64,000 bases of DNA from Escherichia coli (lineage in GTDB: Bacteria > Pseudomonadota > Gammaproteobacteria > Enterobacterales > Enterobacteriaceae), in the NCBI RefSeq assembly GCF_965641715.1, contig NZ_OZ282453.1. One strand, given 5' to 3'. The position numbers were made by a program, and so were the translations under genes. The notes beneath the pieces were generated by a model, which did not search any database, was not told the origin of the DNA, and saw only the letters and a list, made by a program, of their open reading frames with translations. Every line of letters starts with the position of its first letter. The first letter of the stretch is position 1. Shown piece after piece: positions 58,570 through 59,197 of the stretch.

Positions 58570-58920
58570 TTATTCCACCACCGCCTGCAAGCGTAATAAC
58601 GCCTCTTCCACCACCTCATCCGCAGCCAGACCAATACGCTTTGCCAGCCGGGCGCGTAGATCCATCATCCGCACCTGATTCACCAGCACCACGCCGTGCA
58701 CATCGCCTTCTTCGCAATGTAAAGGAACGCTAAATCCGGCATAACGGGCAAAATTTCCGCCCTGCGTAATGGGGGCCACCAGCGTCATTCCCAGTTGATT
58801 AAAGGCTTGAACGGAGAGCACAAGCGCAGGTCGACCAGCACCTTGCTGTTCATGGCCGCTTGCTGGATCAAAGCCAACCAGCACAATGTCTCCCCGTTCA
58901 AATTCACTTTTCTTTACCAT
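58570..58920 (-). CDS. chpB: MazF-family endoribonuclease toxin ChpB
   Basis: 116 aa starting MVKKSEFERGDIVLVGFDP; overlaps the chpS stop. Confidence 0.9.
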   Translation of the reverse strand: MVKKSEFERGDIVLVGFDPASGHEQQGAGRPALVLSVQAFNQLGMTLVAPITQGGNFARYAGFSVPLHCEEGDVHGVVLVNQVRMMDLRARLAKRIGLAADEVVEEALLRLQAVVE

Positions 58921-59165
58921 ATTTCGTCACCCGCAGGGGTGGATTTACCCCAGACATCCTGCTCGCTAAGTTCCGCGGCGTTCATGTCACACTGTGCCAG
59001 CAGTTCATCAAGCGAGTAGCGCCTGGAGATGGGTGTCAGAATCAGTTGGTTGTTGCTCACCTGCGCTTCCACGCTCTGCCCCGGCTGTAAGTTAAGTTCT
59101 TTCATTACGATATTGGGAATGACCATACCTGCACTGTTCCCCCATCTTTTTATGGTAATACGCAT
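58914..59165 (-). CDS. chpS: Antitoxin ChpS (AbrB/MazE fold)
   Basis: 83 aa from MRITIKRWGNSAGMVIP; the track ORF starts 2 codons upstream. Confidence 0.88.
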   Translation of the reverse strand: MRITIKRWGNSAGMVIPNIVMKELNLQPGQSVEAQVSNNQLILTPISRRYSLDELLAQCDMNAAELSEQDVWGKSTPAGDEIW

Positions 59166-59178
59166 CTGCACCTCCTTA

Positions 59179-59197
59179 AGTTATACAAAGTATAACT
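59179..59197. promoter_or_regulatory. Palindromic operator-like site upstream of chpS (AGTTATAC-AAA-GTATAACT)
   Basis: Perfect 8-bp arms, 14 bp upstream of the chpS start codon. Confidence 0.55.

Follow-up and report, generated by a model that had tools for sequence, protein, structure and literature searches.

The chpS-chpB operon of Escherichia coli K-12 (chpBI-chpBK) was reportedly described by Masuda et al. in 1993, and its toxin is said to have been characterized as an RNase by Zhang et al. in 2005. K-12 ChpB is a ribosome-independent endoribonuclease that was reported to cut at ACD sites. A homologous operon is carried by plasmid R1 as parD (kis-kid), which is equivalent to pem (pemI-pemK) of plasmid R100. 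In parD, a palindrome termed region I is protected by Kis and by Kid–Kis in hydroxyl-radical footprints, and its binding is tighter when Kis and Kid are both present (PMC1865072). The left half of region I overlaps the extended -10 element TGTTATATT, and a second, imperfect and cooperative site (region II) is found 33 bp upstream (PMC1865072). According to Monti et al., Kid co-represses the operon together with Kis, and an excess of Kid relieves the repression.

Here, we analysed a chpSB locus in a 64-kb stretch of E. coli DNA, the whole of which we refer to as the window. Finding chpSB adds nothing by itself, as it is a textbook E. coli toxin–antitoxin pair. The palindrome upstream of chpS can be assigned, by homology and by covariation with the antitoxin, to the operator class of parD region I, which provides a concrete 17-bp binding target. 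We hold with considerable confidence that a chromosomal chpS-chpB (chpBI-chpBK) type II toxin–antitoxin operon, autorepressed via this upstream palindrome, is the best explanation of the locus.

Identity and layout of the chpSB module

The interval between ppa and ytfP houses two genes on the minus strand. The antitoxin gene chpS (58914..59165) is an 83-aa open reading frame whose product combines a DNA-binding domain of the AbrB/MazE type at its N-terminus with a toxin-binding tail at its C-terminus, and the toxin gene chpB (58570..58920) is a 116-aa open reading frame that encodes an endoribonuclease of the MazF/PemK fold, here the R89 allele. With chpS directly upstream of chpB, co-oriented with it and overlapping it, the locus has the arrangement of a type II toxin–antitoxin system. 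The overlap comprises 7 nt (ATGGTAA, 58914..58920, minus strand), through which the translation of chpB is probably coupled to that of chpS. In the RefSeq annotation of the same sequence, chpS begins at the ATG at 59165; in the list of open reading frames, it can be extended to a GTG at 59171. The chpS Shine–Dalgarno sequence (AGGAGGT, 59170..59176, minus strand) aligns with the GGAGGTG of pemI.

On the downstream side, ppa (57960-58490, plus strand) is convergent with chpB. On the upstream side, ytfP (59377-59718, minus strand) precedes chpS, and a terminator scan located its intrinsic terminator at 59347..59366 on the minus strand, with an 8-bp stem containing 6 GC pairs that is followed by TGTTTTAT. 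The chpSB control region is bounded on its upstream side by this terminator. The palindrome itself was also considered as a ytfP terminator and was rejected, as its stem is AT-rich, it has no U-run and ytfP already has the canonical terminator. Beyond ppa, the ytfQ–ppa intergenic region contains a perfect inverted repeat, ATGTAACG-gattg-CGTTACAT (57721-57741), which lies upstream of the galactofuranose transporter gene ytfQ and is a candidate operator.

Both gene products were identified by profile searches. ChpB matched Pfam PF02452 (PemK_toxin) with an E-value of 7.8e-26 and 90.9 bits (cut-off 23.1), and it matched the NCBIfam ChpB equivalog NF007320 with 228.9 bits (cut-off 129) across residues 1-116 of 116. 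ChpS matched Pfam PF04014 (MazE_antitoxin) over residues 5-49 (1.3e-11, 44.7 bits, cut-off 24.7) and the NCBIfam ChpS equivalog NF008463 over its full length (196.5 bits, cut-off 101). Near-identical loci of RefSeq E. coli genomes bear the chpB and chpS annotation, and the syntenic genes of K-12 MG1655 are b4224/b4225, in the arrangement ytfP-chpS-chpB-ppa. A sequence-only reading of this DNA had called a chpSB toxin–antitoxin module here; the profiles, the annotation and the K-12 synteny bear out that call, and the coordinates, overlap and perfect palindrome that it gave agree exactly with the sequence and with the list of open reading frames. The module of the window is an already known E. 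coli toxin–antitoxin pair.

A structure search returned Kid (1m1f, 1.8e-21) as the nearest solved structure to ChpB and MazE (~1e-6) as the nearest to ChpS, and it returned none of ChpB or ChpS themselves. ChpS is 37% identical to PemI, and its KRWGNS motif aligns with MazE. Based on the homology of its C-terminal tail to those of MazE and PemI, ChpS would neutralize the toxin through this tail.

The upstream palindrome and its homology with parD region I

The perfect palindrome AGTTATAC-AAA-GTATAACT occupies positions 59179-59197, ends 13 nt before the chpS ATG and is the predicted operator of ChpS or of the ChpS–ChpB complex. Read on the minus strand, it becomes AGTTATAC-TTT-GTATAACT, with the core GTTATA-N5-TATAAC. 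A search of the 64-kb window with up to 2 mismatches gave no second match, and no match appeared in 100 shuffles.

We compared this region with the DNA upstream of pemI on an IncF plasmid. Counted from the respective ATG, chpS is preceded by AGTTATACTTTGTATAACT at -32..-14 and then by TAAGGAGGTGCAGATG, and pemI is preceded by GTTATATTTAAATATAAC at -35..-18 and then by TTTTATGGAGGTGAAGAATG. The sequence GGAGGTG follows the palindrome in both cases. In terms of the cores, GTTATA-N5-TATAAC extends over -31..-15 in chpS and GTTATA-N6-TATAAC over -35..-18 in pemI. When the region upstream of the chpS palindrome was searched for a parD-like region II, none was found within 150 nt (59198-59340, up to 3 mismatches).

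The positional homology with the extended -10 of parD would place the chpS -10 element (TATACT, 59189..59194, minus strand) inside the upstream arm of the palindrome, and would put the transcription start at about 59181-59183. A consensus promoter scan found no sigma-70 -35/-10 pair on the chpS strand, where a recognisable -35 is absent, and a search of the supplementary data of one genome-wide paper for a mapped chpS start found no mention of the gene.

The palindrome is highly conserved among the genomes that carry the module. Of the ~3097 E. coli genomes with chpSB, 3077 contain an exact match to a 41-mer that runs across the ribosome-binding site and the palindrome, and 5 orthologous loci from Escherichia all keep the GTTATA/TATAAC core unchanged. 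The sole variant ortholog (E69) has two changes, both of which flank the core and leave it untouched. Among Escherichia orthologs, the 130-nt upstream block as a whole shows about the same conservation as the palindrome, so that conservation within Escherichia is uninformative at the level of single bases and is weak when taken alone. Phylogenetic footprinting within Escherichia did not single out the palindrome, as divergence is too low.

In the proposed mechanism, a ChpS dimer would bind GTTATA-N5-TATAAC through its N-terminal AbrB/MazE-type domain. The palindrome would overlap both the chpS -10 element and the start of transcription, and bound ChpS would thereby keep RNA polymerase off the promoter. 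ChpB would probably serve as a co-repressor that tightens ChpS binding, leaving transcription of the operon switched off. Repression would be relieved when the labile antitoxin is lost or when the toxin is in excess, and the 7-nt overlap would tie the translation of chpB to the translation of chpS. The homology with parD, the conservation of the 41-mer and the covariation between motif and antitoxin described below make it very likely that ChpS, alone or with ChpB, autorepresses the operon at 59179-59197.

The upstream motif tracks the type of antitoxin

We compared the upstream DNA of 22 loci, consisting of chpS, K-12 mazE, 3 loci from Burkholderia plasmids and 17 from viral contigs. GTTATA motifs were found upstream only of antitoxins of the ChpS type (WGNSAGM[VI]IP) and the PemI type (VGGSVMLTVP). 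All 19 of the 19 MazE-type antitoxins (WGNS[AP]A.R.P) are instead preceded by TCTAC/GTAGA motifs and not by GTTATA. In control DNA from the compared loci, either motif occurs about 0 times per 90 nt. Judging from these sequences, the upstream motif tracks the DNA-binding segment of the antitoxin across the 22 loci.

The motifs of a pair are spaced 11-12 bp apart and may be either inverted or direct. One locus (L021) has the direct repeat AGTTATAC-AAT-AGTTATAC, which can bind protein but cannot form a hairpin, and therefore argues for recognition by a protein. Another (L037), whose antitoxin is of the MazE type, is arranged like chpS but with the MazE-type motif, as TGTATCTAC-TTT-GTAGATACA at -36..-16. 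The claim of the sequence-only reading that the palindrome is an autoregulatory site is thus well supported, at the level of sequence comparison, by its homology to parD region I and by the covariation of motif and antitoxin.

A candidate CRP-S-type site upstream of the palindrome

The core TGCGA-N6-TCGCA defines Sxy-dependent CRP-S sites (PMC1635313), and chpSB is listed as up on sxy overexpression in a 2025 review that cites Sinha et al. 2009 (PMC11951105). A perfect copy of this core is located at 59324..59339, 8 nt past the ytfP terminator and ~160 nt ahead of chpS, where it is a candidate for Sxy/CRP input to chpSB. Across Escherichia orthologs, the TGCGA and TCGCA half-sites are largely kept and the N6 spacer varies (for example, E1V33 has TGCGATGCCCCTCGCA); the decayed form of the locus described below also retains a near-perfect copy, TGCGATGTATCTCGCG. 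The element scores as a weak hairpin as well. The combination of kept half-sites and a varying spacer agrees better with a protein site than with a hairpin. The CRP-S-type site may be read as one possible input to chpSB control.

The window's only other perfect TGCGA-N6-TCGCA is found at 9654-9669, at the 5′ end of an open reading frame with an HNH motif (8750-9670, minus strand). This frame adjoins a P4-type integrase-like open reading frame (9841-11187, minus strand), and the segment 8750-11187 resembles the border of a genomic island.

Presence and decay of the module in E. coli

The sequence-only reading had described chpSB as chromosomally fixed next to ppa. Its placement stands, as the module sits between ppa and ytfP, but its fixation does not. 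Counting complete E. coli genomes that have at least 80% of the chpSB-containing spacer, we found the module intact in 3097 of 5426 genomes (~57%). In another 2322 genomes (~43%), chpSB is replaced by a 379-bp spacer with a decayed chpB relic, and together these two forms account for 5419 of the 5426 genomes. The relic spacer is without the palindrome, all of chpS and the start of chpB; it keeps ~110 nt from the 5′ part of chpB, with ~75% identity, together with the last few codons. In 188 of the 2322 relic genomes, esiB has been inserted.

The module occupies the same site in E. whittamii and in two cryptic Escherichia lineages, which indicates that it is old at this site and was later lost from part of E. 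coli. A scan of one genome per species found no ChpS orthologs beyond Escherichia.

Several records deserve separate mention. The chpB fragment of the relic is ~25% diverged, compared to 0-10% for its flanks. In E. coli HH45 (L015, 1927-2438), the 3′ deletion junction of the relic is combined with an undecayed 5′ fragment of chpB, which matches the window at 100% identity, and a ~130-nt, extremely G/C-rich stretch with runs of G and C is found where chpS is expected; this record could be an assembly artefact or a recombinant. We also considered and rejected a plasmid-borne chpSB in E. coli. The "plasmid" records with 100% identity are unusually large, from 94 kb to 4.9 Mb, and the one record that we inspected, NZ_AP023207.1 (L017), which is filed as a 94-kb plasmid, carries tamB-ytfP-chpSB-ppa-ytfQRT, a chromosomal segment. 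Consequently, these "plasmid" matches are no evidence of chpSB mobility.

Natural alleles of ChpB

The ChpS of the window is 100% identical to that of K-12, and its ChpB is identical at 115 of 116 residues, the sole difference being R89 (codon 58654-58656) in place of the K-12 H89. Using short-query megablast, the 33-mer that encodes R89 was found in 2602 complete genomes and the 33-mer that encodes H89 in 380, which are mostly laboratory lines and include many K-12 derivatives. R89 is the majority natural allele of ChpB, and the H89 of K-12 is a minority allele. The published ChpBK biochemistry used this minority H89 allele.

In the family alignment, position 89 is variable: PemK has K, MazF has R and the Burkholderia homologs have E. 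The residues that are invariant across ChpB, PemK and MazF include E24, R30, T52 and R91, all of which are present in the ChpB of the window; the conserved core residues of MazF, E24, R29 and T52, have their equivalents in E24, R30 and T52. No inactivating substitution was found, as H89R is the only change relative to K-12, belongs to the majority allele and leaves the invariant residues intact. Extrapolating from the published work on the K-12 H89 protein, the R89 toxin of the window would be active as an ACD-site RNase.

Alternative explanations

A locus that decays within the species, leaving 2322 genomes with a chpB relic only, raises the question of whether the copy in the window is itself a decaying, non-functional remnant with an inactive toxin allele. 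Its departure from the K-12 reference at residue 89 would agree with such a remnant, as would the replacement of the Kid catalytic residues R73/D75 by L79/N81 in ChpB. However, both reading frames are full length and score far over the equivalog cut-offs, R89 is the majority residue (2602 against 380 genomes) at a variable position, and L79/N81 are present in the window and in K-12 alike, where the RNase activity of ChpB has been published; we give this explanation almost no credence. A different doubt concerns the palindrome, which might be a chance AT-rich inverted repeat or a generic promoter part without a specific repressor, in which case chpSB would not be autoregulated, or would be controlled only by CRP/Sxy, Lon-dependent effects or others. 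Perfect inverted repeats whose 8-nt arms are at most 10 nt apart are in fact common in the window, where we counted 34 matches at ~20 loci against 13 ± 4 expected from Markov-1 simulations. Therefore, the presence of the palindrome alone proves little, and its significance derives from its position and its sequence homology rather than from its palindromy. The equally conserved flanking block also fits a chance repeat, and so does the accessible literature, which offers no EMSA, footprint or reporter data on ChpS at its upstream DNA and no other direct evidence of ChpS binding. Against this, the half-sites are exactly those of parD and lie at an equal distance from the ribosome-binding site, GTTATA-N4-7-TATAAC with its 12 specified bases has one occurrence in the 64-kb window, and the motif covaries with the type of antitoxin across the family. 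These observations make a chance repeat very improbable.

The palindrome could also be specific and yet act mainly at the RNA level, as a hairpin (59166-59210) in transcripts that start farther upstream, either by read-through from ytfP or from a CRP-S-dependent promoter. Such a hairpin would pair the Shine–Dalgarno sequence and limit chpS translation, or it would stabilize the 5′ end of the mRNA. The inverted repeat does extend to 21-nt arms that are 76% complementary, and the RNA from 59215 to 59140 (minus strand) is predicted to fold at -23 kcal/mol (z = -3.0) with its GGAGG paired. Moreover, the two ACU triplets of the leader, at which ChpB could potentially cut, both fall within the stem, and the candidate CRP-S site upstream could supply the longer transcripts. 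By homology with parD, however, the -10 element lies within the upstream arm, so the main transcript would not contain that arm. The outer stem is broken without compensation in two loci (L007 and L009) in which the DNA core is kept, the L021 locus has the same 8-mer as a direct repeat that is incapable of forming a hairpin, and a scan of 57000-60500 gave no Rfam match. We consider a mainly RNA-level action improbable and treat an RNA-level role of the palindrome as a minor possibility. An operon that ChpS, probably with ChpB, represses at the DNA level remains our preferred explanation.

Implications

The polymorphism between ~57% intact and ~43% relic loci is relevant wherever chpSB is taken to be a core "stress-response" gene. 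Likewise, the ChpB allele of laboratory K-12 (H89) is not the common one, and the R89 protein may behave differently. Because the GTTATA/TATAAC half-sites are shared by the operators of chpS and of the very common pem/parD system of IncF plasmids, cross-regulation between PemIK and ChpSB is conceivable, and cross-neutralisation between the pem/parD and chpSB systems was reportedly observed by Santos-Sierra in 1998. A broader proposal, in which PemI–PemK and ChpS–ChpB cross-regulate each other's promoters, chpSB serves in anti-addiction or plasmid sensing and the split between intact and decayed loci reflects selection linked to pem plasmids, is speculative, and we rate it as unlikely.

Comparison with known systems

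The chpS-chpB operon of K-12 is the same system. Its genes lie likewise between ytfP and ppa, have unchanged lengths and overlap by the same 7 nt, and no base differs from the palindrome through to the ATG. Besides H89 in place of R89, the K-12 locus differs from that of the window at 13 non-coding or synonymous positions over the 886-bp spacer.

The parD (pem) operon has the GTTATA/TATAAC half-sites in common with the chpS operator, in addition to the similarities of Kid to ChpB and of PemI to ChpS given above. In parD, the palindrome overlaps the -10 element and is closely followed by GGAGGTG and the ATG; the same holds for chpS, given its putative -10. The two operators differ in the spacing of their half-sites by 1 bp (N6 in parD and N5 in chpS), and the TG of the extended -10 in parD is AG at that position in chpS. 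Region II is present in parD and absent from chpS within 150 nt, and the catalytic R73/D75 of Kid contrast with L79/N81 in ChpB. Finally, parD is plasmid-borne, whereas chpSB is chromosomal.

The mazE-mazF operon (chpA) resembles chpSB in the fold of its toxin and in its AbrB-type antitoxin with KRWGNS, and its operator overlaps the promoter. Its "alternating palindrome" is composed of GTATCTAC/GTAGAT units, in contrast to the GTTATA of chpS, and R16 in the WGNSPAVRIP segment of MazE is replaced by V in the WGNSAGMVIP of ChpS. The mazEF operon adjoins relA, whereas chpSB adjoins ppa.

The ChpB-family modules on Burkholderia plasmids (L011-L013, positions 400-1151) have toxins that are 61-62% identical to ChpB, and their genes of 252 nt and 351 nt with a 7-nt overlap have dimensions identical to those of chpSB. 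The C-terminal half of the antitoxin is conserved with ChpS, including YSLDEL.AQCD, whereas its N-terminal domain is of the MazE type, unlike that of ChpS. The upstream DNA has four TCTAC/GTAGA repeats at 11-bp spacing around a TACAAT -10 element, and not GTTATA. Judging from these sequences, the DNA-binding domain and the operator of the Burkholderia modules seem to have been swapped together with respect to the toxin and the tail of the antitoxin.
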